Sequence record: SRR31156797_961
Reading direction: 5' to 3' (one strand)
Length of the DNA stretch: 64,000 nt
Shown: positions 42,275 through 60,233 of the stretch, in pieces
Position numbering within the stretch: the stretch's first letter is position 1
Layout: each line of letters opens with the position of its first letter
The notes under the pieces: model-generated
Told to the model about the DNA's origin: nothing
Seen by the model: only the letters and a program-made list of their open reading frames with translations
The model's database searches: none
Position numbers and translations under genes: made by a program

Positions 42275-42393
42275 AAGTTTATTGGGTTGATGATGTGTTT
42301 TGTGATAGCTATTAACTGAAAATAATACCACTAAATTAGTGGTTATTATTTTGAATAATAATTTTGAGATGGAATTTTTAACATTTTGAAAAA

Positions 42394-42724
42394 ATGAACC
42401 GTTTATATCTTGTCCTGATCCTGCTGTTTTCCTTTTGTCAAATAAGCGCCCGGGAAGATATTTTTAGCATCCCCATAAGAACCAAATGGGCTGCAGATTT
42501 CCATTTTGTCAACGACAGTAATAAGATGTCATGCCTTTATCTCGATCTTAATGATATCTATCAGTTTGTTTTGTCCGATTCAAACTACAAATACGAGTTT
42601 GATCTGCCAACTTTTGCGCTGCCCTGAAGGGGCGGGAGATATTTATATCCGAGTTCGAATAAAGGAAAGGGCCTGGAACCCTGTTCAGATCCTTCGGTAT
42701 CCATCATTGAGGTTGATTCGGTGA
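42394..42724 (+). pseudogene. Possible remnant of an exported protein (signal peptide, early stop, continuation in another frame)
   Basis: MNRLYLVLILLFSFCQISA... ends at 77 aa; the overlapping ORF 42506..42724 may be a frameshifted continuation. No family recognised. Confidence 0.3.
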
Positions 42725-43047
42725 AGTATTATAAGCTTATAGCAACTTGGTGTTAGTGTAATTTTGGTCAGGAGAGTACCTTCAAGCGTTGGAAAACAAC
42801 CCGGTGAATTTTTGTGAATGGCCCTTATGAGTAACTGAACAACTGATAGGATAAGTCTTAACGATTACGCGAAGTAATCGCACGGGTAAAAATGCCGAAG
42901 TCAAATAAACCCCTTCATTTTCACGCAACTGACTTCGGTACCATTTGAACACTCATTTTTTATCTTAACTTTGTGTACACATGATAAGTAATATAAAAAT
43001 AATCAAATGAAGTTAGCTCATCAGGAAAACATCACTGACTGAATAAT

Positions 43048-43608
43048 ATGAAACTTTACATCCGATATATGGTTAGCCTGCGCTGCAAGATGGTGGTGAA
43101 ACAGGAATTGAAGAAGCTGGGACTTTGGTATGTGTTTGTTGATCTGGGCACCGTTGAAATTCTTGAGGATATTTCTGAGGAACAACGCCAGCAGTTGAAA
43201 ACCAATCTCCTGAAATCAGGCCTTGAACTACTTGATGATAAAAGAAGCATTCTTATCGAAAAGATTAAAAATATAGTGATCGAAATGATTCATTATGACG
43301 AAGAGCTGCCCAAAATCAACTTCTCAGATTATATCAGCCAAAAAATAGGGTACGATTATACTTACTTATCCAACATTTTCTCGGAAGTGAAAGGGATTAC
43401 GCTGCAGCAGTATATCATCATTCACCGGATTGAAAGGGTTAAAGAGCTATTGCTTTACGACGAACTCACACTTACCGAAATATCCTACCGCCTTCAATAC
43501 AGCAGTGTTGCACACTTGTCCAACCAGTTCAAAAAAGTTACCGGCCTCACTCCTTCGTTTTACAAGCATTTAAAGCAAAAGCGCCGGGGGAATCTGGAAA
43601 GTCTGTAA
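43048..43608 (+). CDS. AraC-family transcriptional regulator with a short N-terminal HMA-like domain
   Basis: N-terminal IRYMVSLRC (HMA-like MxCxxC with Cys to Ser); C-terminal double HTH (YLSNIFS...LTEISYRLQYSSVAHLSNQFKKVTGLTPS). Confidence 0.9.
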   Translation: MKLYIRYMVSLRCKMVVKQELKKLGLWYVFVDLGTVEILEDISEEQRQQLKTNLLKSGLELLDDKRSILIEKIKNIVIEMIHYDEELPKINFSDYISQKIGYDYTYLSNIFSEVKGITLQQYIIIHRIERVKELLLYDELTLTEISYRLQYSSVAHLSNQFKKVTGLTPSFYKHLKQKRRGNLESL

Positions 43609-43668
43609 GATATGTCATACTTTGCCGGAAGTATGTAATGTTTATCCAAGATAAGGTCAGCACCTTTG
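43602..43668 (+). promoter_or_regulatory. Conserved 67-bp promoter/operator, copy 1
   Basis: TCTGTAAGATATGTCA-N15-ATGTAA-N22-CACCTTTG; overlaps the AraC stop codon. Confidence 0.75.
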
Positions 43669-43702
43669 CATGGTCAATATTGACATAACTGAAGCATCCA
43701 TC

Positions 43703-43982
43703 ATGAAAAATTTAGGCATTGCTATTCTGGTAATCGGATTAATTATCACGCTGATAACCGGATTCAGTTATGTAAAGCGCGAAAAAGTTGTGGACAAAGG
43801 AGGCCAGAGCCGCTTATTTGAAAAGAATTGCGGAACTTGAACAAAAAAACCTCGAGATGAAAAAGAAAATGAGTGACTACAAAGACGATAGTAAGGACGC
43901 CTGGAAATCCTTTAAAACTGAAATTAGCAGCGACATGGATGAACTTGGTAAATCGCTGAAGGATTTCTTTGTTACGGAATAG
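43703..43982 (+). pseudogene. Chimeric deletion remnant: 5' half of a small membrane protein joined out of frame to the 3' half of a coiled-coil protein
   Basis: 43703..43840 reads MKNLGIAILVIGLIITLITGFSYVKREKVVD then loses character. A different frame from ~43795 reads KEARAAYLKRIAELEQKN...WKSFKTEISSDMDELGKSLKDF with no proper N-terminus. Confidence 0.6.
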
Positions 43983-44003
43983 TTTTGGCGAATTGATTTG
44001 ATG

Positions 44004-44034
44004 AAAAAAGGCTGGTGGCAACACCGGCCTTTTT
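44004..44034 (+). terminator. Intrinsic terminator
   Basis: AAAAAGGCTGGTG-GCAA-CACCGGCCTTTTT. Confidence 0.75.
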
Positions 44035-44060
44035 GTTTAGAGGTATTACGCCGGATAAAA

Positions 44061-44127
44061 TCTGTGAAACTTGTAACTAAATACCGAACTTATGTAACAG
44101 TTTACTAAGCAGTTCATCTCACCTTTG
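44061..44127 (+). promoter_or_regulatory. Conserved 67-bp promoter/operator, copy 2 (csbD operon)
   Basis: TCTGTGAAACTTGTAA-N15-ATGTAA-N22-CACCTTTG. Confidence 0.8.
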
Positions 44128-44165
44128 CACAATGAGAATATTCTCCAAACTTAAAACTAAGAGTT

Positions 44166-44351
44166 ATGAACAAAACAGAATTGAAAGGAAACTGGAACCA
44201 GCAAAAAGGGTTGCTGAAAAAGAAATTTGCAACGCTTACCGACGATGACCTGATGTATGAAGAAGGCCAAAAAGATGAGATGCTTGGTAAGCTTCAGGTT
44301 AAACTTGGGAAAACAAAAGAGGAAATGTATAGCATATACAAATCCCTTTGA
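44166..44351 (+). CDS. CsbD family general stress protein
   Basis: KGNWNQQKG.LK.KFA.LTDDDL...EG...E..G.LQ.KLGKT.EE. Confidence 0.9.
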   Translation: MNKTELKGNWNQQKGLLKKKFATLTDDDLMYEEGQKDEMLGKLQVKLGKTKEEMYSIYKSL

Positions 44352-44386
44352 TCGCTGAAAAATTGAAAATAAAAAGAGCTGAAATT

Positions 44387-44524
44387 ATGAAACCTGGAAG
44401 AGCTTATTTAAGTATGGTGACAAGTTTTGCAACAGGCGTCGTATTGGGTGCATTGTTCGTCACCAAAAAAAAGTTGAAAATTCTAAAAAGGAAAGAGCAA
44501 ACAAACGGGGCGAAGTCAGTTTAG
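44387..44524 (+). pseudogene. Short, degenerate YtxH-like ORF (45 aa)
   Basis: MKPGRAYLSMVTSFATGVVLGALFVTKK... resembles the YtxH N-terminal anchor (G..LG.LFAP.KG) but lacks the motif and the helical body. Confidence 0.4.
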
Positions 44525-44771
44525 TTGAAAAGGAAAACCGATGAGATTTAATGATTCGTATCCGGGAAGTACTTAGGTTAAGAAAATCAATTCCTTTTTC
44601 GGAATGCACAAAAACCAATTGATATGAATGGGAGTTGATTTGTGTAGAGTGAAAGTATCAGGGTTTTCAACCAAAATATTGGGTTCGTTCCGGTAATACC
44701 TGCTGTAATGATCATTTCAGATTGTATGATCAGGGTGGGCTCAATATTTTGTTTTTTTAACCAGCCACACA

Positions 44772-45182
44772 ATGACAGGCAAAAACTACCATGCAGATTC
44801 ATCCTCACAAAGCATTAAAGTATCGCGGGATACAAATACAAATATTCCCAACCTGCCGGCACTTATTGCAACAATGAAACGCAGCACTTCATGGGCACAG
44901 GGCGAATTGAATTCAATTATCCTACGAAATTGGGCTGACCAGAAAATTGTGTTGACCATGATCCATAAGGATACCCAAATTTTATCTTTTCAGGGTGGGC
45001 ACTCTACTACTTTTGAGGTAATTGAAGGGGCACTAACATTTTTGAATCATAAGAGATCGGTAATAATTGATGAAGGACATTTGCTGACAGATTACGACAA
45101 CTTAGCCTACAAGCTAAGTAATTCGGTTGATACGGTGTTCCTTAGTATAACAGATCATAAGATTAATGAAAAATTAAACTGA
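44772..45182 (+). CDS. Hypothetical cupin-like protein
   Basis: W..GELNSIIL...KIVLT..H...TFEVIEG.L.F pattern resembles a cupin barrel. Confidence 0.5.
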   Translation: MTGKNYHADSSSQSIKVSRDTNTNIPNLPALIATMKRSTSWAQGELNSIILRNWADQKIVLTMIHKDTQILSFQGGHSTTFEVIEGALTFLNHKRSVIIDEGHLLTDYDNLAYKLSNSVDTVFLSITDHKINEKLN

Positions 45183-45219
45183 TTTGCAGCATGTATTAAT
45201 TACAAAAAGAACAGAAACC

Positions 45220-45375
45220 ATGGGAAATCTACATTACATAATTGCATTGGTTATGATCATCATTTGGGCAATTAGCTATTTCTTCTTTCATGCCGGTGGA
45301 TCAATCCACATGTTGCTGCTTATTGCAGCTTTCGCAATAATTTTAAGGCTTATCCAGGGCAGTAAAGTTTTTTAA
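45220..45375 (+). CDS. lmo0937-family small membrane protein
   Basis: MGNLHYIIALVMIIIWAI...AGGSIHMLLLIA.; likely start ATG 45220. Confidence 0.8.
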   Translation: MGNLHYIIALVMIIIWAISYFFFHAGGSIHMLLLIAAFAIILRLIQGSKVF

Positions 45376-45432
45376 AAACACAATTTATAAATCCATTTCT
45401 AAAAATAAACAGGAATAGAAATCCGACTATCC

Positions 45433-46527
45433 ATGGCAGTTAAAGAACTTATGCTACCCCTTTATGTGAAAACCATACTAGTTACTATTGGTTTAGTGGC
45501 CTTTGTTTTCATTTTGTATATTGCGCAAGGCATCATCATTCCTATTGTTTTTGCAACTGTTCTTGCCATCATACTTCACCCTTTGGTAAACCTGATAACC
45601 CGGTTAAAAATAAACAGGATTTTATCCATTATCATTACCTTGCTTCTAACCTTTATGGCAGTAGCAGCATTTGGCACCCTTTTGTTTTCGCAGGCAAGCC
45701 GGTTTACTGAATCACTACCGGGACTGATTAACAAGTTTACTGAAATACTTAATCAACTTATCTTCTGGACATCAGGTTATTTTGATATCAGTGCCAATGA
45801 AATTACCACATGGATAACAGATACAAAAAACGAACTCATAGGAGGAGCTGAAATCGGTCAGACGATTGTGGGTGTTGGTAGTTTGGTGGCCTTTTTGTTT
45901 TTAATTCCTGTGTATGTATTTATGATTTTGTTTTATCAGCCGCTGCTGATCGAATTTTTTCACAGGCTGTTTGGCAAAAGCAACCGCGACAAAGTGAGCG
46001 AAATCATTAACCAGATTAAAAACCTTATTCAGCGTTACCTCATCGGATTACTTATCGAGGTGGTTATCATTTCTTTTTTATATACCATTGGCCTCTTAAT
46101 ATTGGGCATCGAATACGCAATAATCCTTGGTATTTTAGGTGCCCTTCTAAACCTTATTCCATATCTCGGTTCTATCATAGCTGCGTCCATGCCGATGTTA
46201 ATCGCTATCGCAACCAAACCATCACCCTGGTTCGCTCTGTTGGTTCTGGCACTTTACATCTTCATCCAGTTTATCGACAACAACTTCATCGTCCCCAAAA
46301 TAGTAGCTTCAAAGGTAAAAATCAACGCATTGGCTTCTATTATTGCTGTAATTACATTTGGCGCACTTTGGGGCATTCCCGGCATGTTGGTGGCTATTCC
46401 CCTGATAGCCATTGCAAAGCTGATTTCCGATCACATCGAATCATTAAAGCCCTGGGGCTTTTTATTGGGCGATACCATGCCTTCTCCATTGTTGCTTAAA
46501 TCCGTCCGCAAAAAGAAAAACATGTGA
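45433..46527 (+). CDS. AI-2E family transporter
   Basis: Multi-TM; LNLIPYLG, IQFIDNNFIVPK and LWGIPGMLVAIP motifs. Confidence 0.9.
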   Translation: MAVKELMLPLYVKTILVTIGLVAFVFILYIAQGIIIPIVFATVLAIILHPLVNLITRLKINRILSIIITLLLTFMAVAAFGTLLFSQASRFTESLPGLINKFTEILNQLIFWTSGYFDISANEITTWITDTKNELIGGAEIGQTIVGVGSLVAFLFLIPVYVFMILFYQPLLIEFFHRLFGKSNRDKVSEIINQIKNLIQRYLIGLLIEVVIISFLYTIGLLILGIEYAIILGILGALLNLIPYLGSIIAASMPMLIAIATKPSPWFALLVLALYIFIQFIDNNFIVPKIVASKVKINALASIIAVITFGALWGIPGMLVAIPLIAIAKLISDHIESLKPWGFLLGDTMPSPLLLKSVRKKKNM

Positions 46528-46567
46528 AGCACTGCTTTTTAGTCTTATTGGAACCAATCGCAGAATA

Positions 46568-46634
46568 TGTGTGAATGATGTAAACCTTAACCTGAATTGT
46601 GTAACAACCACAGCAGCGGTGTTATTTACTTTCG
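46568..46634 (+). promoter_or_regulatory. Conserved 67-bp promoter/operator, copy 3
   Basis: TGTGTGAATGATGTAA-N15-GTGTAA-N22-TACTTTCG. Confidence 0.8.
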
Positions 46635-46710
46635 CTCTAATGAAAGGTCTTTGTCTGTCATATTGACAATCATACTGTTTTACATAAAATAACTAATAAA
46701 TAAACAAACA

Positions 46711-47211
46711 ATGAAAAAGCAAGTTTTGGTTTTTATCCTGTTCATGGCTACCAGTTTTGTCTTTGCACAAAGCCCCATAACAAAAGGAGAGGCGCAGATT
46801 AATGCCGGAGTAGGTCTTTCATCCTGGGGTATTCCGGTTTACGTGGGATTCGATTATGGTGTACATCCTGATATAACCCTGGGGGCTGAACTTTCCTTCC
46901 GCTCCTACAGCGACAATTGGCACGACGATAAATACAAACACACGGTCTTCGGTATCCTGGGTAATGCAAATTATCATTTCAACACCATATTAAAAATTAC
47001 TCCTCCCTGGGACTTTTATGCCGGGTTAAATCTGGGATTTTACAGTTGGAACTCTCCTGATGGATACGAGGGCTCAAACACTTCAGGAGTTGGGATTGGT
47101 GCGCAGATTGGTGGCCGGTACTATTTTAGCAATAAAGTAGGTGTAAATCTGGAGTTTGGCGGTGGCAGTGGATCCAGCGGCGGAAAATTCGGATTAACCA
47201 TAAAATTATAA
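46711..47211 (+). CDS. Small outer-membrane beta-barrel protein
   Basis: Signal peptide, NYHFN...WDFYAG, GGRYYF, C-terminal GLTIKL. Confidence 0.8.
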   Translation: MKKQVLVFILFMATSFVFAQSPITKGEAQINAGVGLSSWGIPVYVGFDYGVHPDITLGAELSFRSYSDNWHDDKYKHTVFGILGNANYHFNTILKITPPWDFYAGLNLGFYSWNSPDGYEGSNTSGVGIGAQIGGRYYFSNKVGVNLEFGGGSGSSGGKFGLTIKL

Positions 47212-47330
47212 TGAAAAAGAATAAATGATTCAATTCATAAATATCCACCGGCATGATCAATCCCGAATCATCGGGATTGTTCGTGCTTTTTTCCAAAGGC
47301 TTCACCATGTGAGTGGCAATTTTTAATTAG

Positions 47331-48185
47331 ATGAAAAAAATCATTCAGGTAAACAGGGTAGTTCCGAAGCTTAGAAAAGCTACAACACAGGGAATAACAA
47401 AGCTTAGCGAAAATACACTTGCCAGAACAGAAAGAGCGGGTAATTTTTTAACGGATGTTGCTGATGTTTTCATGTTTATTGCCCGGGTTATAAAGGAGAC
47501 TTTTTCGGTCAACTTTGAATTTAAGGAATTCTTTCGCCTTTGTTTCCAGATCGGTAATAAAACACTACCTCTTATTTCAGTTACAGGTGCAATAATGGGC
47601 TTGGTGCTTACTATTCAGTCGCGGCCGGTATTGTTGGATTTTGGAGCAGTGAGCATGCTGCCGAGCATGGTGGCTGAATCCCTGATCAGGGAGATGGGGC
47701 CGGTAATTACGGCACTGATTTGCGCAGGGAAAATTGGTTCTGGCATGGGTGCCGAACTGGGCTCCATGAAAGTAAGTGAACAGATAGATGCCATGGAAGT
47801 ATCTTCAACCAACCCCATGCGTTTTTTGGTGGTCACCAGGGTGTGGGCAGCAACGCTGATGGTTCCGGTTTTGGTGCTTTATGCTGATGCAATGGGAATC
47901 CTGGGGAGTTATGCAGGGGCAAATATCAGGGGTGATGTTCCATTCGTCCTGTTTATGGGGCAGGCATTTGCGTCAATAAGTTTTATGGATTTGTTTCCGG
48001 CAGTCATCAAAACATTTTTCTTCGGTGCAGTCATCGGTTTGGTAGGAACCTACAAAGGATATAACGCAGGGCGGGGAACCGAGAGTGTGGGTGTTGCAGC
48101 CAATTCCGCCGTGGTTGTGGCTTCACTGCTTGTTATTGTTGTTGACCTCATTGCTGTACAAATTACCGACATGTTCGTATCATGA
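47331..48185 (+). CDS. mlaE: MlaE family ABC permease
   Basis: IREMGPVITAL, GAELGSMKVSEQIDAME and VGVAANSAVV motifs. Confidence 0.9.
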   Translation: MKKIIQVNRVVPKLRKATTQGITKLSENTLARTERAGNFLTDVADVFMFIARVIKETFSVNFEFKEFFRLCFQIGNKTLPLISVTGAIMGLVLTIQSRPVLLDFGAVSMLPSMVAESLIREMGPVITALICAGKIGSGMGAELGSMKVSEQIDAMEVSSTNPMRFLVVTRVWAATLMVPVLVLYADAMGILGSYAGANIRGDVPFVLFMGQAFASISFMDLFPAVIKTFFFGAVIGLVGTYKGYNAGRGTESVGVAANSAVVVASLLVIVVDLIAVQITDMFVS

Positions 48186-48967
48186 AAGCGCCATCAACAG
48201 ACCATACAACTGAGGGATCAATAGGATCGAATATCAACAAACCGGTTATTGAGATATCTAAACTGAAGAAATCATTTGGGAACCTGGAGATTCTGAAGGA
48301 TGTCTCGCTAAAGCTGAATGCCGGTGAAAACCTGGTTGTTCTTGGCAAATCCGGAACCGGTAAATCGGTATTAATTAAATGTATAGTTGGGTTATTGATT
48401 TCTGACAGCGGCACAATTAAAGTATTTGATGAAGATGTAACCACCATAAACAATATAGAGATGGCAATGCTAAGGCAAAAAATCGGCTTTCTGTTTCAAT
48501 GCGGCGCATTGTATGATTCGATGACCGTAGGGCAAAACCTTGAATTTCCGTTAAAACGCTTAAAAAAACACCTCTCTAAAAAAGAGCGGGACGAAAAAAT
48601 CATGGAAGCACTTGAGAATGTCGGACTTGAGGATTCCATTTACAAAATGCCTTCCGAACTCTCCGGTGGCATGCGTAAGCGGATCAGCCTGGCACGCACT
48701 ATGGTCGTTGATCCAATGATCATGCTTTATGACGAACCTACCACAGGCCTTGATCCTGTGACCTCCGATGAGATCAGTGAGCTGATTCTTGAGGTTCAGC
48801 AGAAATATAAAACATCGTCAATGATCATTACACATGATATCCGATGCGCCCTGACCACAGCAAACCGCATCGTTATGCTGCACGAGGGAGGTGTTTATCA
48901 GGATGGAAAGCCGGAAGAATTTACAAACTCAGATGATCCGCTGATTCATGCATTTTTTAGGCGTTAA
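48182..48967 (+). CDS. mlaF: MlaF family ABC ATPase
   Basis: GKSGTGKS, PSELSGGMRKR, YDEPTTGLDP, ITHD. Confidence 0.9.
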   Translation: MKAPSTDHTTEGSIGSNINKPVIEISKLKKSFGNLEILKDVSLKLNAGENLVVLGKSGTGKSVLIKCIVGLLISDSGTIKVFDEDVTTINNIEMAMLRQKIGFLFQCGALYDSMTVGQNLEFPLKRLKKHLSKKERDEKIMEALENVGLEDSIYKMPSELSGGMRKRISLARTMVVDPMIMLYDEPTTGLDPVTSDEISELILEVQQKYKTSSMIITHDIRCALTTANRIVMLHEGGVYQDGKPEEFTNSDDPLIHAFFRR

Positions 48968-49006
48968 CAGGATAACCAAAGGAAATAATTCATTCATAGC
49001 TATATT

Positions 49007-49948
49007 ATGAAAACACATTCACAAAATTTCAAAGTCCGGTTAGGGCTTTTTATCATTGGAGGCCTTGCACTTTTTGTGCTGGCCATCTTCATCATCGGGA
49101 AACAGCAAAATCTTTTCAACCCGGTTTTCAAACTTACTACCACATTTTACAATGTTAGTGGTTTGCAGGTAGGCAACAACATCCGCTTTTCGGGTATTAA
49201 TGTTGGCACAGTTACCAATATCAGAATAATCAACGATTCTACGGTAAAGGTGGAAATGATACTGAGAAAAGAGATAAAACAGTTTATCAAGTCCGACTCA
49301 AAGGTAGCAATAGGCTCTGAAGGTCTTATTGGCGACCGTCTTTTAATCATTACGCAGGGTAGTTTGGTCTCCTCTGAGGTAATTGAAGGTCAGGTGCTTA
49401 AATCGGCTGAGCCTGTTGAAATGGACGACATTATCGTAAGTTTGAGAGTGACAGCCGAAAATGTGGAAGTTATCACTGCTGAGCTTGCACAAGCCATACT
49501 GACCATTAACCGGGGTGAAGGGACACTTGGGAAGCTGATCCAGGATTCGACCATCGCCAACAATATTGACCAGGCTATTGCAAACCTGAAAAAAAGTTCC
49601 GAAGGGATAGATGAAACCATCGAAGTGACCAAAGAAAATGTATTTGCATTTATGGAAAGCCTTAAAGCCTCAGCCGCCAAAACCGAGATTGCTTCGCAGC
49701 AACTTGGCGAAATAATGACACAAATCAACAGCGGTGAGGGTACAATCGGAAGGCTGATCCAGGATACAACAATGGCTTATAACCTGAATGAGACTTTAAT
49801 AAACCTTAACTCCAGTTCAAAAGCGCTGGATGAAAGCATTGAAGGACTTAAGCACACCTTTCCTCTCAAGAGATACTTCAGGAAGAAAGCGGAAAAGGCT
49901 GTAAAGGATAGCATACAAAAAGAGAAGGAAGCAATAAAAGTGAAGTGA
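49007..49948 (+). CDS. mlaD: MlaD/MCE family protein with a long, internally repeated helical C-terminus
   Basis: TM anchor; VSGLQVGNNIRFSGINVGTV and SEGLIGD motifs; repeated IN.GEGT(L/I)G(K/R)LIQD. Confidence 0.88.
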   Translation: MKTHSQNFKVRLGLFIIGGLALFVLAIFIIGKQQNLFNPVFKLTTTFYNVSGLQVGNNIRFSGINVGTVTNIRIINDSTVKVEMILRKEIKQFIKSDSKVAIGSEGLIGDRLLIITQGSLVSSEVIEGQVLKSAEPVEMDDIIVSLRVTAENVEVITAELAQAILTINRGEGTLGKLIQDSTIANNIDQAIANLKKSSEGIDETIEVTKENVFAFMESLKASAAKTEIASQQLGEIMTQINSGEGTIGRLIQDTTMAYNLNETLINLNSSSKALDESIEGLKHTFPLKRYFRKKAEKAVKDSIQKEKEAIKVK

Positions 49949-50077
49949 TGAAATGGCAGAGGTATGCATGCCCCGGATTTTAAGAGTAAAACGCCCCCAA
50001 TCCCCCGAAAGATTGAAAATTGTCTGCGACCCTGGAATGCCTAAAGGACTTCGAAACGTTAAATATGGAAATCAATA

Positions 50078-51907
50078 ATGTGGAAAATAGTAACATCCAT
50101 ATTGACCTTTGTTTTGATTTTAGCAGGTTATCCCCTCTTAGCCCAATCTGAGGTTTCCAAAAGTGATTCCACGAAATTGTACGCTGACATCCAAAGCTAT
50201 GCCGAGAGAAGGAAGTTCACCAACATGTTGTACCGGTTGGTTTTTAGGCCGTCTTTGGATGATTCGGCAAAATCCGGGCAAAAAAGCAGACCGCCTCAGA
50301 AGTCGTACCTGGCATTTGAAGGGAAAATCATCAGGAGCATAGAGGTGGAGACACTGGATCCGTTCGGCTATTCAATCGGCGATACAATTGTATCGTCACC
50401 AAATTTTTTCACCAAAGCAGGCAACAGGCTGCACGTAACCACCCACCCTTTTATCATTAAAAACATGTTACTGATCAGGGAAAATCAGGTTTTCGACTCG
50501 CTGCTTGTAAAAGAGTCGGAAAGATTGGTTCGTGCCAATAAATTTGTCACTGATGTTTCGTTCTACATTGAAATTAGTTCGCCGGGCTCCGATTCAATCG
50601 ACATTTTCATCAGGGAGTTGGATGCGTGGAGCATTATTCCAGAAGGTTCAATTTCGGGCCCGCGCACCAGGTTTCAGCTTACAGACCAGAATTTTGTAGG
50701 AATGGGGCACAAATTTGAGATTGGATCTGCCCTGAACTCATCCAACGGAAGAACCGCCTTCAATACCGGGTACTATATTCCAAATTTCAGAAATACATAC
50801 ATCACTTCTTCATTGGTGTACACCCGTGACGAACAGAATAATTATGATTTCATCCTCTCTGTTGACCGCCCGTTTTTTTCACCTTTAGCCAAATGGGGAG
50901 CAGGGGCGTTGTTGATGAAACATTTTCGCCGGGATTATTATCCCCAATATGATACGCTCGGCGGGTTGCAAAACAATAAATTCATACTTTCGGATTACTG
51001 GGTGGGAAAGGCAACGCGTATTTTTAAAGGGAATTCAGAGATCAACCGTACAACCAACCTCATTTCCACAGCACGGTTCATGCGTATCCGTTTCATCGAA
51101 AAGCCCGTGGAATCCGACTCCTTAAAACCATCGTTTGCGGATGAGGAGTTGTACATGGCAGGGCTCTCCATTTCTTCCAGACAATTTGTTCAGGATAGGT
51201 ATATTTTTAATTTTGGATTGACTGAGGATGTTCCGGTTGGAAAGGTGTTTGGCATTACCGGAGGATACCAGGCAAGGGGCGACATCAGCCGTTTGTATTT
51301 TGGCACGCGGTTATCATTTGGCAACTATTATCCATGGGGCTACCTTGTTTCCAATCTCGCGTTTGGGTCTTTCGTTCGTGGCGGTAAACTTGAACAAGGT
51401 GTATTTTCCTTAAGCCTCAATTATTTTTCAGGGTTGATTCACATTGGTAAATGGAGATTCAGGCAGTTTGTCAAACCGGGGCTCACTTTCGGCGTTAACA
51501 GGTTTGGTCTCGATTATTTAACGCTCAACGATGATTATGGTTTGCCCGGCTTTAACAGTACCGGACTGTCAGGCACTCACCGGTTGCTGTTGACTTTGCA
51601 AACCCAGTCATATGCACCATGGAACCTGATCGGGTTTCGCTTCGGTCCATTCATTGCCATTTCGGCCGGGATGCTGGGCAACAATACCAAAGGCTTCAGT
51701 AAAAGCAAACTATACACTGAAATAGGATTTGGGGTACTCATCAAAAATGTCCATCTGGTTATCAATACTTTCCAGCTCTCCATTGCATTTTATCCTTCCA
51801 TCCCCGGAGTTGGACAGGACATATTCAAAACCAACTCTTTCAAATCCACCGATTTTGGATTTCCTGATTTTGTTGTTGGAAAGCCGGAAATCATCGAATT
51901 CCGATGA
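50078..51907 (+). CDS. Omp85/TamA-like outer-membrane protein (POTRA-like + beta-barrel)
   Basis: Signal peptide; GKIIRSI...T...II.N.LL...ESERL.R POTRA-like segment, D.NF.G.GH barrel start, beta-strand-rich C-terminus. Confidence 0.7.
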   Translation: MWKIVTSILTFVLILAGYPLLAQSEVSKSDSTKLYADIQSYAERRKFTNMLYRLVFRPSLDDSAKSGQKSRPPQKSYLAFEGKIIRSIEVETLDPFGYSIGDTIVSSPNFFTKAGNRLHVTTHPFIIKNMLLIRENQVFDSLLVKESERLVRANKFVTDVSFYIEISSPGSDSIDIFIRELDAWSIIPEGSISGPRTRFQLTDQNFVGMGHKFEIGSALNSSNGRTAFNTGYYIPNFRNTYITSSLVYTRDEQNNYDFILSVDRPFFSPLAKWGAGALLMKHFRRDYYPQYDTLGGLQNNKFILSDYWVGKATRIFKGNSEINRTTNLISTARFMRIRFIEKPVESDSLKPSFADEELYMAGLSISSRQFVQDRYIFNFGLTEDVPVGKVFGITGGYQARGDISRLYFGTRLSFGNYYPWGYLVSNLAFGSFVRGGKLEQGVFSLSLNYFSGLIHIGKWRFRQFVKPGLTFGVNRFGLDYLTLNDDYGLPGFNSTGLSGTHRLLLTLQTQSYAPWNLIGFRFGPFIAISAGMLGNNTKGFSKSKLYTEIGFGVLIKNVHLVINTFQLSIAFYPSIPGVGQDIFKTNSFKSTDFGFPDFVVGKPEIIEFR

Positions 51908-52059
51908 GGTTTCTGCACATGAGGCAATGCCGGAAAAACTTCCACATTTTCCCCGGATTCGGCAGGCTGTGGCAAAACATAAAAACGCCTGCGAATTTAA
52001 GGATTAAGAATTAATGGTAAATTTGTTAAATTGAAAAAGTAAAAATTACAGACCTGAAC

Positions 52060-53346
52060 ATGGAACAGGATAACGCAACGAAATATATAGGAAAGTTTTG
52101 GTTGCCCCTCGATAATGCTGCAAAAATTTTTCCTGCCATCATTTCAGAAGAAGCAACTGCAGTTTTCAGGTTAACGGCTGTTTTAACAGGACCTGTAAAA
52201 ATAAAGCATCTGCAAAAATCGCTGTTGATGGCAGAGGAACGTTATCCCTATTTCCTGGTGCAGCTCAAAGAAGGGTTTTTCTGGTACTACCTGGAGCATC
52301 ATTCTCAACATATTCCCATACTTCATGACGTCATTCCGCCTTGCAGAAAATTTGAGAGAGGCGGTCTTTTGATAAGGTTTTTAATTAAAGGCTGCAGCAT
52401 TAGTGCCGAATTTTCCCACATTTTAACCGATGGCGCCGGGGCACTTAAATTTTTTAGGAACGTCCTGTTACTGTATTTCCTTGAATGTGGTATTGAACTT
52501 CCGGCTGACTGCCGCGCTGAACTTATGAGTAATGATCTGTCACAGGAAGCGTATGAAGATGCCTACAAACGCTACTTTAAATCGGAAATTCCTCCTATGG
52601 TTAAAAAGTCGAAAGCCTACCACCTTCCTTACATTGCCCGGACAGTCCCAAAATATTCACGGATGATCGCAAGCCTGCCCATAAAAAATATCAGTGCGGC
52701 GGCAAAACGCAATGGCGTGAGCATCACCGTTTACCTTGTATCGGTGTATCTTTTTATCCTGCAGCAGATTTTTGAAAACCTGAACAAACGCAACAAGTAT
52801 AAAAGAAAGAAATATATTCGTGTTCAGGTCCCGCTTAACCTGCGCAACATTTTTCCATCGCATACTATGCGAAATTTTTCTTTGTTCGTGATGCCTGGAA
52901 TCGACCTGCGGCTTGGACATTACGACTTTGAGGAAATTATTAAAACAGTTTATCATCAGGTTAAATTGGAAACCGATAAAAAGCTCATCAACAAAAATAT
53001 TTCAAGAAATGTTGGCAGCGAAAAAAAACTCTATGTACGTGGAATACCGCTGTTCCTTAAAAGCCTGATTTTGCGGTTGAAATATATTTCGTTGGGCATG
53101 AGCCAGTATAGCGGTGTAATCACCAACCTGGGAAAAATTGAATTGCCTCCTGAAGGCAGCCGTCTGATCGGCCATTTTGTGGTAACTCCGCCTCCACCGG
53201 GCAAAATTTTGAAGATAAATTGCGGGGTGGTGGGATTTGGCGATAAAATGGTGTTGAGTTTTGGCAATGTTACCCAATCGCAGGAATTCGAAAACCTGTT
53301 TTTTGATTTTTTGCAGAGCCAGGAAATTCCGGTAGAATTATTATGA
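52060..53346 (+). CDS. Alcohol acetyltransferase / condensation-domain acyltransferase
   Basis: W.PLDNAAKIFP, HILTDG (HxxxDG), PLNLR..FPS.TMRNF and TNLG motifs. Confidence 0.8.
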   Translation: MEQDNATKYIGKFWLPLDNAAKIFPAIISEEATAVFRLTAVLTGPVKIKHLQKSLLMAEERYPYFLVQLKEGFFWYYLEHHSQHIPILHDVIPPCRKFERGGLLIRFLIKGCSISAEFSHILTDGAGALKFFRNVLLLYFLECGIELPADCRAELMSNDLSQEAYEDAYKRYFKSEIPPMVKKSKAYHLPYIARTVPKYSRMIASLPIKNISAAAKRNGVSITVYLVSVYLFILQQIFENLNKRNKYKRKKYIRVQVPLNLRNIFPSHTMRNFSLFVMPGIDLRLGHYDFEEIIKTVYHQVKLETDKKLINKNISRNVGSEKKLYVRGIPLFLKSLILRLKYISLGMSQYSGVITNLGKIELPPEGSRLIGHFVVTPPPPGKILKINCGVVGFGDKMVLSFGNVTQSQEFENLFFDFLQSQEIPVELL

Positions 53347-54092
53347 ATAACAATAACCATAAAAATATGATACAATGCCCAAATTGTGGTGTGGTGCTTG
53401 ACGAAAACTGCAATTTTTGTTCGCTTTGCGGCGTGCCGCTATTGGAACAGCAAACCGACAACAGTGCATTCGTCCAGGCATTAGAAATACGTCAACAGGA
53501 AAAACTAATGTCGGATTTTAATACTTTAAGCAGTTTTCAGAAAAGAAAAATCTTTTGGAAAATTTCGGGGCTAATTTTTATTTGTGCTTTGGTTATTAAC
53601 CTGATTATCGATTTTGTGGTGAATCAAAACATTACCTGGTCAAAATATCCGGTATCAATCATTGTGGTGCTGTTCATCAATTTTTCGTTGTACACTTTTT
53701 TGCAAAACAAAACCCTGCTAAAACTCATCCTTAGTTTTATTTCGGTAGCCGGCCTCCTGATGCTGTTCGATCTTTTTTTTAAACAATCAGGATGGGAATG
53801 GCAAATGGGCATTCCACTGTTGCTGGCAGCCTACATAACAATTTATGTTTTTGTTTTATTGGTAAAAAAAGCCAGGCAAAAAGGCATGAACATCATTGCT
53901 TATATTTTACTTTCGATGGGAATGTTGAGTGTTTATACCGAAAGCCTGATTGCCATATATCAAGGCGATCCGGAACCCTTTGGATGGAGTTTGATTGTTT
54001 TTGTTTCATCCTTGATTATATCCATCTTGCTGCTATATATACACTACAAATTAAAAAAGGCCACAGACCTGAAACGTTTTTTTCATATCTGA
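53343..54092 (+). CDS. Zinc-ribbon membrane protein (DUF6320-like)
   Basis: CPNC...CSLC, about 6 TM helices, C-terminal LKRFFHI; ATGA overlap with the acyltransferase. Confidence 0.7.
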   Translation: MNNNNHKNMIQCPNCGVVLDENCNFCSLCGVPLLEQQTDNSAFVQALEIRQQEKLMSDFNTLSSFQKRKIFWKISGLIFICALVINLIIDFVVNQNITWSKYPVSIIVVLFINFSLYTFLQNKTLLKLILSFISVAGLLMLFDLFFKQSGWEWQMGIPLLLAAYITIYVFVLLVKKARQKGMNIIAYILLSMGMLSVYTESLIAIYQGDPEPFGWSLIVFVSSLIISILLLYIHYKLKKATDLKRFFHI

Positions 54093-54331
54093 TCACAGCT
54101 TCCTGCTAAAAGATTGGGGAAGTCGCAAGGGTTCATGCCAAATCTTTAAAAAAAAGCAACACCAACAATCCATCTCTCAACAGGCAGAGGACACCCTTTA
54201 AATATTTGGTAATATCTCTCTGCAAAAAACGACAGGCAATAAACAGCAATAACCAAAATTTTTGCAAGATCCTGTTTATGCTTGAAGTGACCGGATTTTA
54301 TAAACCCGGCCTTCCGTTATGCTACTGATAA

Positions 54332-54398
54332 TGTGTGAATGATGTAACTTATAATATTACTTATGTAATAGAAATCCCTTCCATTACCCGCACCTTTG
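54332..54398 (+). promoter_or_regulatory. Conserved 67-bp promoter/operator, copy 4 (OmpA gene)
   Basis: TGTGTGAATGATGTAA-N15-ATGTAA-N22-CACCTTTG. Confidence 0.8.
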
Positions 54399-54443
54399 TA
54401 CTTTAGAATAAATGTATTATTCATCAAATAAATAACGAAAACA

Positions 54444-55784
54444 ATGAAAAAATCAATTTTATTACTGACCATGTTTTTTGCAGTTACATTTATGGTGACT
54501 GCCCAAAACAAAACCCGGCCCTGGCTTGTTGGCGTAAGCACGAACTTCGCTGACTTCCATGCGGTTGAGTTGCCTTTGGGTGACCAACTGACGAATTCGA
54601 GCTGGATGGGAAATACCTTTGTTTCTCAATTGAAAGTTGGGAGGTTGTTAAGCAGAGAAATAGTCTTCAGCGCTGAAGTTTCGATGATCAACCTGGAAAC
54701 TGACAAGCTAAACGCATGGGGAAGCATCGAAAAACCAATTACGATGACCAACGACATGTGGAGATTCCAGGGGCAGTTCGAATATAAATTTGCCAATGGC
54801 TATCTGCTAAAGGAAGCGTCTATGTTTGATCCCTATGTGTTTCTTGGTGTAAACGGCACCCGGATTGACAAATCCACCTATATGGCACAATCAACCGGAA
54901 TTGGATTTAATATCTGGGTAACCGACTGGCTGGCCGTTAACGGTGAAGCATCATACGATTATGTGTTTGATTTTAACGATTATATGCATTATTCCTTTGG
55001 TATTGCTTCCCGGTTTGGTAAAAGTGCTGCAAAAGAGTCACCAATCGAAACAGATGCGAAACTTGTAGTATTGCCGCCAGATAAAGATGGTGACGGCGTT
55101 CCCGATCATCTCGACCGGTGTCCTGAAATCGCAGGGCTTTCGTGGTTCGATGGCTGTCCTGATGCCGATGGTGACGGTGTACCGGATCATCTTGATCAGT
55201 GCCCTGATGTTGCCGGCCTTGCATGGCTCAATGGTTGCCCTGATGCTGATGGAGACGGCATAGCGGATCATCTTGACGAATGTCCTGATGTAGCCGGAGT
55301 GGCCACCGCAAAAGGTTGCCCTGACGCGGATGGCGATGGTATTCCAGATGATGTTGATAAATGCCCTGACGAATTTGGTATTGCAGGTAACAACGGCTGT
55401 CCATTGCTGGATAGTACGAAAGTTAAGGAATTAGAAACCACCCTGCAAATTTTTGCTGATCATATTGAGTTCGCATTCGGAAAATATGTCATCAAACCGG
55501 TATCTTATGATAAACTGGACAAAATCATCGAAACCATGCAGGAATACCCCAATGCAAAGTTTGCAATAGAAGGCCATACCGATAATGTTGGCACAGATAA
55601 GGTAAACCAGACAATTTCAGAAAGCCGCGCCTATGCGGTCAGACAGTACTTTGTTGACAAAGGAATTAATCCCGACAGATTAACATTTAAGGGATATGGC
55701 GAATCACGTCCAAGAGACACGAATGATACCGTGTCAGGCAGAGCCAAAAACAGGCGCGTGGAAATCAGGCTCATTCAACAGTAA
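54444..55784 (+). CDS. OmpA family protein with thrombospondin type 3 (DxDGDG..D..D.CP) repeats
   Basis: N-terminal barrel, four DxDGDG(V/I).D..D.CP repeats, IEGHTD...S.SRA..V...NRRVEI peptidoglycan-binding domain. Confidence 0.92.
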   Translation: MKKSILLLTMFFAVTFMVTAQNKTRPWLVGVSTNFADFHAVELPLGDQLTNSSWMGNTFVSQLKVGRLLSREIVFSAEVSMINLETDKLNAWGSIEKPITMTNDMWRFQGQFEYKFANGYLLKEASMFDPYVFLGVNGTRIDKSTYMAQSTGIGFNIWVTDWLAVNGEASYDYVFDFNDYMHYSFGIASRFGKSAAKESPIETDAKLVVLPPDKDGDGVPDHLDRCPEIAGLSWFDGCPDADGDGVPDHLDQCPDVAGLAWLNGCPDADGDGIADHLDECPDVAGVATAKGCPDADGDGIPDDVDKCPDEFGIAGNNGCPLLDSTKVKELETTLQIFADHIEFAFGKYVIKPVSYDKLDKIIETMQEYPNAKFAIEGHTDNVGTDKVNQTISESRAYAVRQYFVDKGINPDRLTFKGYGESRPRDTNDTVSGRAKNRRVEIRLIQQ

Positions 55785-55837
55785 AATGAAATCACTAAGG
55801 ATAGCGCATCAGCATCAGGCTTTTCAATAATTACAAA

Positions 55838-55904
55838 TGTGTGAATTATGTAAATTTTTGAAGAACTTTTGTAAGACAATTTGAGGCTGGTGGGCTTTCC
55901 TTTG
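55838..55904 (+). promoter_or_regulatory. Conserved 67-bp promoter/operator, copy 5
   Basis: TGTGTGAATTATGTAA-N15-TTGTAA-N22-TTCCTTTG. Confidence 0.8.
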
Positions 55905-55937
55905 TAAAATAGTTTAATCATTGTAACAAAAGAAATC

Positions 55938-56093
55938 ATGTCACACGAAAAAGTATCAAAAGAAAAGTCAGGTAAAAAGGTAGCTGCCAAAAACCTGAAG
56001 GAAAAACGCGCTGCCAAAGCGGCAAAACGTGATGAAAAAAAATCCGGGTTCAAAATTGAACTCGCTGCTCCGGTATCAAAAACAAGAAAATAG
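55938..56093 (+). CDS. Small lysine-rich protein (51 aa)
   Basis: Not in the track. MSHEKVSKEKSGKKVAAKNLKEKRAAKAAKRDEKKSGFKIELAAPVSKTRK; A-rich leader; starts ~34 bp after promoter copy 5. Confidence 0.7.
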   Translation: MSHEKVSKEKSGKKVAAKNLKEKRAAKAAKRDEKKSGFKIELAAPVSKTRK

Positions 56094-56212
56094 CAGCGCA
56101 TGTTTTTTTTCAAATGTAGTACATTTCCATTGGCTTCGTATCTGACCGGCACAGCACAAAAAGCCGGGGCGTAAGCGAAAAGCAATAAGAATTAAAATTA
56201 ATTATATGAACA

Positions 56213-56614
56213 ATGAAAAATCTTAAAATCGCATTGCTGTTTTTTGCCATACTATTCATGGCCTCCTGCACAGATAAAGTAAAATTCCCGGTTTCAAATG
56301 TCACCCCTTCGGCTGATATAACGGCCAGTTTTGAGAAAGACAAAAACGGAAATTACGAGATTTCTATCACCGCAAAAAATCTGGCTTCGGCCGATCGATT
56401 GAATCCACCTCAAAAAGTGTATGTTGCCTGGATTGTCAAAGATAAAGGAGGAATATTAAACCTGGGTCAGCTAACGCATAATAATGCAAGCACAGTTTCT
56501 TTCGAAACCCTTACATCCCAGGAGTTTTCAGAGGTTTTTATAACTGCTGAGCAGAATGGGAATATTTCTTTTCCGGAAGGGGTGGAGATATCCAGGATAA
56601 AATTTAAAAAGTAA
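56213..56614 (+). CDS. Hypothetical lipoprotein
   Basis: Lipobox MASC; DKNGNY...YVAW...NLGQL...ITAE. Confidence 0.75.
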   Translation: MKNLKIALLFFAILFMASCTDKVKFPVSNVTPSADITASFEKDKNGNYEISITAKNLASADRLNPPQKVYVAWIVKDKGGILNLGQLTHNNASTVSFETLTSQEFSEVFITAEQNGNISFPEGVEISRIKFKK

Positions 56615-56834
56615 AATCATTTTGCCTGACCTGTTAATATGGTTAGCGGCAAAGTAAATTTCGGGGTTTACTACTGCCGGCGCTGTAAATGTTCGGTTCC
56701 CCTTTTATAACTCCCCTTATAATTCTCCCCCTGTCTCGGGTGAAAGATGAACTCCTTTCAGAGTTCATCTTACCCGGTCAGGAACAATTGGAAACACACC
56801 TCACAAAAAGTATCAAACGCTACAGAAAGTTAAT

Positions 56835-57185
56835 ATGGAACATACAGAACAGGAAAAATCGAAATCCTTCATTATTGTTGAGATCATTGAATACGTTCCA
56901 AATTCAGTGGTAATCAAAACGATAATCAAGAAAACAACAGGCAATGTAAGCGCGGTATCTTTTGATTCCGGTGAAACATTAACCGATAGAATGTCGCCTT
57001 TTGACAACTTCATTCAGATCATCGATGGAAGTGCTGAAATCATCATCGACCGGAAAAGCAGCAAGCTCAAAACCGGTCAATCCATCATCATACCGGCGCA
57101 TGCTTATAATACGATCATGGCAAAAGAACGTTTTAAGATGATTACAACCATCATAAAAAGCGGGTATGAAGAGGTGAGTGTATAA
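56835..57185 (+). CDS. Cupin domain protein
   Basis: SFDSGE.L....SPFD..IQIIDG.AE...GQSIIIPAH. Confidence 0.85.
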   Translation: MEHTEQEKSKSFIIVEIIEYVPNSVVIKTIIKKTTGNVSAVSFDSGETLTDRMSPFDNFIQIIDGSAEIIIDRKSSKLKTGQSIIIPAHAYNTIMAKERFKMITTIIKSGYEEVSV

Positions 57186-57347
57186 GAATGCTTTTAAATG
57201 TTATGCGCAGATTATTTCTCAGATAACTGGTCAACTGCTTCGTAGTCGTCAAGATTGCACAAATGTTTGATGATGATTGAACCGACGACAACTCGTGGGT
57301 TTATTGGTGGACGACCTGTTGGACTGACACCTACCTGCTTGAGGTTC

Positions 57348-57380
57348 ACTCATATGTTGACTCGAAGTCATCGTATGAGT
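57348..57380. repeat. REP-like palindrome, second copy
   Basis: ACTCATATGTTGACT-CGA-AGTCATCGTATGAGT; right arm identical to 12200..12214. Confidence 0.75.
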
Positions 57381-57393
57381 AACAAAAACCGGA

Positions 57394-60153: not shown

Positions 60154-60196
60154 GGTGGAAATTTTTAGTTCTCCAAAATTACGATTTCCTGCAAAC

Positions 60197-60233
60197 AAAA
60201 AAGGTGGTTTGCACGGATTGGCAAACCACCTTT
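60197..60233 (-). terminator. Intrinsic terminator after the C25 peptidase gene
   Basis: AAAGGTGGTTTGC...GCAAACCACCTTT stem with a T-run on the minus strand. Confidence 0.75.

Follow-up and report, generated by a model that had tools for sequence, protein, structure and literature searches.

The 64,000-nt stretch of sequence record SRR31156797_961 analysed here (referred to below as the window; position numbers are those of the whole stretch) contains five intergenic elements of 67 bp each, distributed over a 14-kb gene cluster which is bracketed by the gene of a 186-amino-acid (aa) regulator and that of a small cupin. The question raised by this locus is what these elements do, and which protein works them. 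The elements share a single anatomy, which is conserved in other Bacteroidota and linked there to the gene of the regulator. On the strength of these comparisons we consider it likely that the five elements are activator-dependent sigma-A promoters of one small regulon, and that the adjacent 186-aa regulator is the protein that would work them.

All five elements are located on the + strand, the same strand as the genes, and can be aligned with one another over the 67 bp without any gap (Table 1). Each contains a pair of boxes in direct repeat at a distance of 21 bp (GTGAAtnATGTAAc followed by GAAnTTnTGTAAc) and ends in a -7 box (nAccTTTG) situated exactly 22 bp past the second of them. Box 1 reads TCTGTAAGATATGTCA, TCTGTGAAACTTGTAA, TGTGTGAATGATGTAA (in two elements) and TGTGTGAATTATGTAA; the second box, 21 bp downstream of it, is (A/G/T)TGTAA; and the -7-like box is CACCTTTG in three of the elements and TACTTTCG and TTCCTTTG in one each. 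Viewed as protein-binding sites with a period of 21 bp, these boxes form a distal strong site, aATGTGTGAATnATGTAAc, and a proximal half-degenerate one, GAAnTTnTGTAAc. The two TGTnA words inside one site are 9 bp apart, a spacing which fits the two helix-turn-helix (HTH) units of one AraC-family DNA-binding domain. The coordinates, boxes and 21-bp and 22-bp spacings listed in a preliminary description of this DNA all proved to be correct when checked against the sequence and the gap-free alignment; its distance of 34-77 bp between element and start codon compares with a measured 33-76 bp.

In a pattern search of the window, five exact copies of TGTRA-N4-TGTMA-N16-TGTAA were found, each of them on the + strand, where approximately none would be expected. 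With up to two mismatches allowed there were six matches, compared to a mean of 0.72 in 100 dinucleotide-preserving shuffles, none of which (0/100) reached six. A position weight matrix scan of the 64 kb scored the five elements and no sixth one, in agreement with the earlier remark that the element was not seen elsewhere in the window. No Rfam family matched in the region 42300-57500, and a scan for sigma-70-type promoters and terminators, the model for which does not cover Bacteroidota promoters, yielded 43 promoters against 37.7 expected and 14 terminators against 14.2.

The word at the end of each element resembles the type recognized by the primary sigma factor in this phylum, for which a TAnnTTTG sigma-A box at -12 to -5 has been described in Flavobacterium psychrophilum (PMC9723704). 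When the F. psychrophilum positions are applied, the proximal TGTAAC is placed at -39 to -34, and the distal TGTAA and TGTGA at -60 to -56 and -69 to -65, respectively, the distal site as a whole covering about -69 to -55; with TAnnTTTG at -12 to -5, the proximal TGTAAC covers the usual place of the -33 element. The -7 box itself is partial, the A and the TTTG being kept and the first T not.

The conservation of this geometry was followed in 80 loci, gathered by a protein search with the regulator in 185,579 species genomes. They encode full-length relatives with 46-86% identity and span the Bacteroidales, Flavobacteriales, Chitinophagales, Sphingobacteriales, Cytophagales and Marinilabiliales. 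The named genomes with an ortholog locus include those of species of Arenibacter, Maribacter, Marinilabilia and Spirosoma. The exact three-box pattern was present in 45 copies in 1.2 Mb, in 28 of the 80 loci, and many of these copies begin at the stop codon of the regulator gene. The same is true of element 1 in the window, box 1 of which overlaps the stop codon of the AraC-type gene, an arrangement kept in the three closest relatives (L001-L003) and in many other loci, there at locus position ~10555. A matrix was built from 50 sites picked on positions 2-36 only, that is, on the upstream boxes. The -7 box was nevertheless found in these sites at its fixed distance (T63 in 50/50, T64 in 49/50, A60 in 41/50), and its retention in sites chosen on the upstream boxes only is an independent confirmation of the rigid geometry. 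The conserved -7 positions in the 50-site matrix are A60, T63, T64, T65 and G66, the first T being present in only 12 sites; the spacer has no conserved sequence and is 22 bp long in 50/50, and no conservation of TTTG was seen at the -33 position of these sites. At a threshold above 8 bits the matrix gave 172 matches in the 80 loci and the window, 50 of which are the training sites and 122 new, against 0 in the reversed sequence, with at least one match in 66 of the 80 loci. For 163 of the 172 matches the start of an open reading frame (ORF) lies at most 230 bp downstream, at a median distance of 47 bp.

These data bear upon two other explanations of the repeated copies. One is that they are the remnants of a short mobile or repetitive element with no regulatory role, for which the mere repetition speaks, and nothing more. 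This reading is already contradicted by the conservation pattern, which is limited to the box positions and the -7 box and leaves the spacers free; in addition, all five copies are intergenic and on the gene strand, and the sites in other loci lie at the above median distance from a start codon and are kept across orders of Bacteroidota. We therefore give it practically no credence. The second explanation, a promoter of an alternative sigma factor with TGTAAC as its upstream and ACCTTTG as its downstream element, had been named as an alternative in the preliminary description and is in our estimate very improbable. GTAAC is indeed similar to the -35 AAC words of extracytoplasmic function (ECF) promoters, but the 22-bp gap exceeds the usual ECF spacers, and a sigma factor model leaves the second full copy of the box, 21 bp upstream, without a function. 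Nor was any sigma gene found repeatedly in the 80 loci (the rest of the window was not screened for such genes). Furthermore, the downstream word resembles the sigma-A -7 type, and is not the CGT-type -10 described for flavobacterial ECF-type promoters (PMC9723704).

The motif is also linked to the regulator gene in position and in distribution. Among gene copies with at least 58% identity, 61 of 67 have a site within 1.5 kb, as do 8 of 18 copies at 45-58% and 1 of 3 below 45%. In five whole genomes the exact pattern occurred 1, 1, 4, 4 and 16 times (reversed control, 0), and the single exact matches of two of them (G001 and G002) adjoin the regulator gene. Five further genomes, searched for the pattern plus the -7 TT with at most one mismatch, contained 3, 11, 12, 8 and 17 sites, as compared to 0, 0, 0, 0 and 1 in the controls. 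An evenly drawn sample of 301 Bacteroidota genomes was then considered for the phylum. A family member at E <= 1e-30 was present in 147 of them, often in several copies, and a close ortholog, defined by E <= 1e-68, a cut picked after the data were seen, in 32. The exact 63-nt pattern was found in 28 of the 301 genomes (control matches in 2). A close ortholog is present in 19 of these 28 and absent from 9, out of 32 and 269 sampled genomes, respectively (Fisher p = 2.8e-15). Of the 22 close-ortholog genomes matching the shorter pattern, 16 have a site no more than 5 kb away from the gene. The preliminary description had attributed the elements to activation by the adjacent AraC, had proposed a matrix scan with co-occurrence across Bacteroidota as a check, and had held that a motif common in genomes lacking this AraC would refute it. 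As the above numbers indicate, the motif follows the AraC subfamily and is rare outside it. The core of that proposal, namely activator-type promoters linked to the AraC gene, thus has strong comparative support, and the proposal as a whole is supported in part.

The regulator scored 46.4 bits against HTH_AraC (cut-off 26.6) over residues 97-173, which places it in the AraC/XylS family. Its AlphaFold2 model, with a predicted local distance difference test score (pLDDT) of 90.6, is composed of a ferredoxin-like (HMA/ACT-like) beta-alpha-beta-beta-alpha-beta domain in residues 1-63, a long linker helix in residues 65-83, and a seven-helix DNA-binding domain with two HTH units in residues 92-185. 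The C-terminal part matched the MarA, SoxS, AdpA and AraC DNA-binding domains with Z scores of 11.6-13.8, MarA (1bl0, Z 13.0) and SoxS (7w5w, Z 12.3) being among the best fold matches. For the N-terminal domain, HMA and ACT matches were obtained at Z 7-8; those to the HMA proteins GolB and HAH1 had a Z of 7.6 with 22-24% identity, and ACT domains scored equally high. Pfam HMA (PF00403), characterized by a GMxCxxC loop, was not among the regulator's matches at E <= 0.01, and the corresponding loop in the window, MVSLRC, has a single Cys (SxxC). An alignment of 32 sequences showed no variation at M8, V9, R12 and C13. Serine occupies position 10 in the window protein and in 46 of 67 close copies, the remaining 21 having C; among more distant copies, C is found there in 15 of 21, including 6 of the 7 with a P-type ATPase gene nearby. 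With S at position 10, the classical two-Cys metal site is absent from the window protein. Relatives of the regulator carry generic database names ('AraC-like DNA-binding protein', 'helix-turn-helix domain-containing protein', 'hypothetical protein'). An arabinose-type AraC proper was also considered and rejected: there is no fused N-terminal cupin, and the NCBIfam AraC model gave 30.3 bits against a cut-off of 208.

The gene of the regulator seems to be transcribed from an ordinary, constitutive-looking promoter, as suggested by a full candidate sigma-A -7 box, TAACTTTG, 75 bp upstream of it. The window holds a single copy of the gene, and the matrix scan of the window found no regulated element upstream of it. 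In six other loci (L035, L034, L055, L074, L024 and L028) tandem duplicates of the regulator were observed with a site between the copies, pointing, for some lineages, to positive autoregulation or to pairs that have become subfunctionalised.

Additional information on what this protein family might bind was provided by its paralogs. Those with 31-55% identity adjoin HMA chaperone and/or P-type ATPase genes (L085 5277-6120, L086, L034 4024-7069, L067, L076, L077 and L080); the ones at 46-55% (the third copy in L034, and those in L067, L076 and L077) adjoin P-type ATPase genes, and the paralog in L080 is followed by an HMA-type gene. They share with the window regulator its length, domain order, the invariant M8, V9, R12 and C13, and the operator geometry, and differ from it in their neighbors and, for most of them, in having CxxC at positions 10-13, where L077 has SxxC as does the window protein. 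In the DNA downstream of most paralogs, box 1 lies over the stop codon and is followed by a second box and AnnTTTG, with the same spacing but with other box letters. Paralogs that have their own box variants in one geometry, each by its own gene, display the pattern of regulator-operator pairs, and these paralog-specific boxes are the best available indirect support for the proposal that proteins of this family would bind the boxes. Judging by their neighbors, the paralogs look like a family of metal-responsive AraC-type regulators in Bacteroidota, of which we have found no description.

Several points weigh against the reading of the elements as activator-dependent promoters worked by this regulator. 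Besides the training sites included in the matrix matches and the ortholog cut mentioned above, a site within 1.5 kb is missing for 6 of the 67 close copies, and the exact pattern for 13 of the 32 close-ortholog genomes; variant boxes may account for some of these cases. A stress function, as far as the label goes, would follow from homology to proteins of the Firmicute SigB regulon. A site overlapping -33 could also serve a repressor, and one may accordingly imagine that the AraC-type protein binds the boxes but mainly represses, or is a dual regulator, occluding -33 until a signal arrives; the location of the proximal box over the place of the -33 element, as derived from the F. psychrophilum positions, and the constitutive-looking promoter of the regulator gene are in line with this possibility. 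Elements which have neither a -33 TTTG nor the conserved first T of the -7 box are, however, too weak-looking to need repression, and the rigid 22-bp phasing (50/50 selected sites) points to a need for polymerase-contact activation and not for simple occlusion. We consider the chances of a mainly repressing protein to be slim.

The main evidence against an exclusive link between regulator and motif comes from 2 of the 301 genomes, G019 and G024, which carry seven high-scoring sites (42-57 bits) without a close ortholog. The genes after these sites are similar to members of the regulon found elsewhere, namely those for Usp, OmpA, barrel and small membrane proteins. The best family member in the two genomes is 32% identical and is located beside copZ-copA, with a variant element upstream of the HMA chaperone and P-type ATPase genes. 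Either the two assemblies lack the ortholog, or the motif is read by a different protein in these genomes. In a broader form of the latter possibility, another transcription factor binds the boxes in general, and the AraC-type gene and the cupin gene are conserved members of the regulon that travel along; in some genomes the motif does lie upstream of the AraC-type gene itself, so that this gene can be a target. Yet no further regulator gene was found repeatedly in the 80 loci, a PAS kinase and a response regulator being limited to 3-4 of them, and direct repeats with a 21-bp period next to the -33 position are the typical AraC-family layout. Taking into account also that paralogs of the regulator have their own box variants by their own genes, we view a different binding protein as unlikely. 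A 298-aa AraC-type gene near the G019 sites was examined as a candidate and set aside, as it has a different architecture and no reason was found to tie it to the motif. The cupin homolog of G019 (50% identity) adjoins an unrelated, frameshifted AraC-type gene.

Based on the preferred reading, in which the adjacent regulator activates the five promoters, a sequence of events can be proposed. Two copies of the 186-aa regulator would occupy the two sites, and the bound regulator would recruit RNA polymerase as a class II activator, in the manner of AraC, RhaS and MelR. Transcription is predicted to start approximately 5 nt past the TTTG (Table 1), and the regulon as a whole would presumably respond to stress. 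A search of sequencing runs for this DNA returned three DNA data sets and no RNA data set. Just past the -7 box of element 1, at 43676-43687, there is a perfect 12-bp palindrome, GTCAATATTGAC, kept in L001-L003; being located about at the predicted transcription start of this element, it may serve as another operator or form a hairpin at the 5' end.

The genes found downstream of the motif in the different loci are most often the cupin (35 loci), CsbD (11), the regulator or its tandem copy (11), a 753-aa glycosyltransferase (10), OmpA (9), an sll1863-like gene (8) and DUF5670 (7). YtxH, Usp, Band 7, GH130, ice-binding-like, PIG-L, outer-membrane barrel, PAS hybrid kinase, response regulator and zinc alcohol dehydrogenase genes follow, in 3-5 loci each. 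With respect to the genes present in the window, the gene directly following the motif is an OmpA homolog in 9 other loci and MlaE in 2, AI-2E lies downstream in only 1 other locus, and homologs of the 166-aa barrel protein adjoin sites in L081 and L082. The recurring downstream genes look like a stress/protection and envelope set, to judge by the families they belong to. The regulon looks small, with ~3-17 sites per genome. Sites were seen to clump in two of the genomes examined, 10 of 12 within 64 kb in G308 (contig C31, 532-596 kb) and 12 of 17 within 52 kb in G310 (contig C23, 122-174 kb); these clumps may be termed 'stress islands', of which the 14-kb cluster in the window is a small version. 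Members of the regulon in relatives also include the 753-aa GT4/GT1 glycosyltransferase (L039 5016-7274), a GH130 phosphorylase and an ice-binding-like protein (see also L038 6959-8017 and L022 5289-6125), and this hints at a possible role in compatible-solute or cold/desiccation protection.

The cupin is the commonest gene after a site, and the first one in 29 of its 35 loci. It is present in 43 of the 80 AraC loci, usually directly 3' of the regulator with a site between the two. In an alignment of 28 sequences, which left out the L063 reference because of a stop codon, its mean column identity was 73%, as conserved as the regulator; no HxH motif was found in this alignment. The structural model of the 116-aa window protein (pLDDT 76.8, nine strands) matched the single-domain cupins 1yhf and 2ozj with a Foldseek probability of 1.00, and this predicted fold confirms the protein as a member of the cupin superfamily. 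A prediction of a regulator-cupin complex, in which the supplied alignments were unused, scored 0.00 (mark, 0.34) and speaks neither for nor against binding. As the most constant neighbor of the regulator across the phylum, the cupin may feed back on it. In the window, the cupin gene has no element of its own and is separated from the preceding lipoprotein-like gene by a long hairpin, GAAAGATGAACTC...GAGTTCATCTTAC, at ~56745-56780.

Several known systems resemble the one proposed here. The AraC, RhaS/RhaR, MelR and XylS proteins of E. coli and Pseudomonas, which act by class II activation, share with the window regulator the AraC-family domain with two HTH units, and their promoters share with the window elements two direct repeats with a ~21-bp period, a weak-looking core promoter and, if the F. 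psychrophilum positions apply, a proximal site at the upstream promoter element. In contrast to these proteins, the N-terminal part of the window regulator is a 63-residue ferredoxin-like fold and not a sugar-binding cupin, its promoters would be of the Bacteroidota -33/-7 type, and its predicted targets are stress and envelope genes instead of a catabolic operon; the cupin is free-standing and encoded beside the regulator, whereas in AraC it is fused. MarA, SoxS and Rob are alike in the fold of the DNA-binding domain, and are small activators of a dispersed stress/envelope regulon which use the housekeeping sigma factor. MarA and SoxS bind as monomers to a single box of ~20 bp and are controlled by their abundance, while the window system has two phased sites, an additional N-terminal domain and an ordinary-looking regulator promoter. 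A regulon of the MarA/SoxS/Rob type, with a single asymmetric box, was considered as a class for the locus and rejected, each promoter having two phased boxes.

The SigB regulon of Firmicutes and the RpoS regulon share with the window the CsbD and DUF5670/lmo0937-like families, and with its relatives YtxH and Usp; CsbD, YtxH and lmo0937 are SigB-dependent. Unlike SigB and RpoS, the window regulator is not a sigma factor but would be a one-component factor at sigma-A type promoters, and its regulon looks small. To our knowledge, no general stress sigma factor of the RpoS or SigB type is known in Bacteroidota. A bolder hypothesis, which we regard as doubtful, is that this one-component protein of the HMA-like/AraC type directs, as master activator, a general stress/envelope response throughout the Bacteroidota, exerted via sigma-A class II promoters; it would share its ancestry with the metal-sensing paralogs of copper/heavy-metal efflux, and would be part of a feedback loop with the free-standing cupin, as a 'split' AraC.

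Literature searches, in which supplements were not covered, found no description of the motif, of the regulator subfamily or of an AraC-type general stress regulator in Bacteroidota. The terms 'AraC', 'TGTAA' and 'CsbD' are absent from the main text of PMC9723704, the supplementary promoter tables of which could hold such sites. In our best reading, a class II activator of the AraC family is combined here with an unusual sensor domain, with a new operator and with a stress-like regulon that extends across the phylum. The preliminary description had missed the HMA/ACT-like N-terminal domain, the cupin as the most conserved partner or target, and the two genomes with sites but no close ortholog. 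Little has been charted of global stress control in Bacteroidota, a phylum of importance in gut, soil, marine and fish-disease settings. The present model supplies a conserved regulator together with a precise description of the operator and a few target families, all open to direct testing in any tractable member. It would also provide a first functional handle on small proteins of uncharacterised role (CsbD, DUF5670, YtxH, the sll1863-like protein and the cupin). The strict promoter grammar could be reusable for engineering, and the paralog pairs, with one geometry and differing boxes and targets, constitute a natural system for the evolution of specificity in the AraC family.

Table 1. Elements and genes of the cluster in the window. 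Bits, score in the matrix scan; distance, bp from the final G of the element to the likely start codon; transcription starts are predictions.
Feature	Position	Strand	Bits	Distance	Predicted start near	Content or remark
Candidate sigma-A -7 box	42966..42973	+				TAACTTTG; read from sequence
AraC/XylS-family regulator, 186 aa	43048..43608	+				Pfam HTH_18, 65.3 bits (cut-off 33.6)
Element 1 (P1)	43602..43668	+	43	34	43673	Lowest score of the five
Unit 1	43703..43982	+				Small two-helix membrane-protein gene, broken off, fused to an sll1863-family remnant
Element 2 (P2)	44061..44127	+	58	38	44132	
Unit 2	44166..46527	+				CsbD (44166-44351), ORF58, ORF136, DUF5670 (45184-45375), AI-2E transporter (45433-46527); Pfam
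Element 3 (P3)	46568..46634	+	54	76	46639	-7 box TACTTTCG
Unit 3	46711..54092	+				166-aa outer-membrane barrel-like protein, MlaE, MlaF, MlaD, 609-aa ORF, 428-aa ORF, zinc-ribbon/DUF6320; Pfam, NCBIfam
Element 4 (P4)	54332..54398	+	60	45	54403	
Unit 4	54444..55784	+				OmpA-family protein with thrombospondin type 3 repeats; Pfam
Element 5 (P5)	55838..55904	+	54	33	55909	-7 box TTCCTTTG
Unit 5	55938..57185	+				51-aa basic peptide, 133-aa lipoprotein-like protein, 116-aa cupin (56835-57185)

Most of the gene identities put forward earlier for the cluster were upheld, namely those of the AraC-type, CsbD, DUF5670 (lmo0937-like), AI-2E, MlaE/F/D and OmpA genes. The beta-barrel and Omp85-like calls were weak, as was the cupin in Pfam before its fold was modeled: the 166-aa barrel, the 609-aa ORF and the cupin had sub-threshold family matches only (Pfam, NCBIfam), that of the 'Omp85-like' 609-aa ORF being a weak match to a BamA model (E = 6e-5). 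The gaps between the genes of unit 3 reach 153 bp, and its status as one transcript is putative.

In unit 1, the membrane-protein gene stops after ~33 codons, and what follows in another frame is the 3' two thirds of an sll1863-family gene; the match to NCBIfam sll1863_fam accordingly covers profile positions 31-88 of 93 only. An alignment with the window indicated that L001-L003 have an intact 69-aa gene at this position. The unit is followed by a hairpin and T-run at 44010-44034. No YtxH gene was found in the window, where unit 1 has the sll1863-family fragment instead. The cluster is flanked by two large genes on the - strand, at 39938-42331 and 57394-60198, one of which is a 797-aa ORF with no Pfam match, while the other encodes a 934-aa protein with a type IX secretion sorting tail (Por_Secre_tail).

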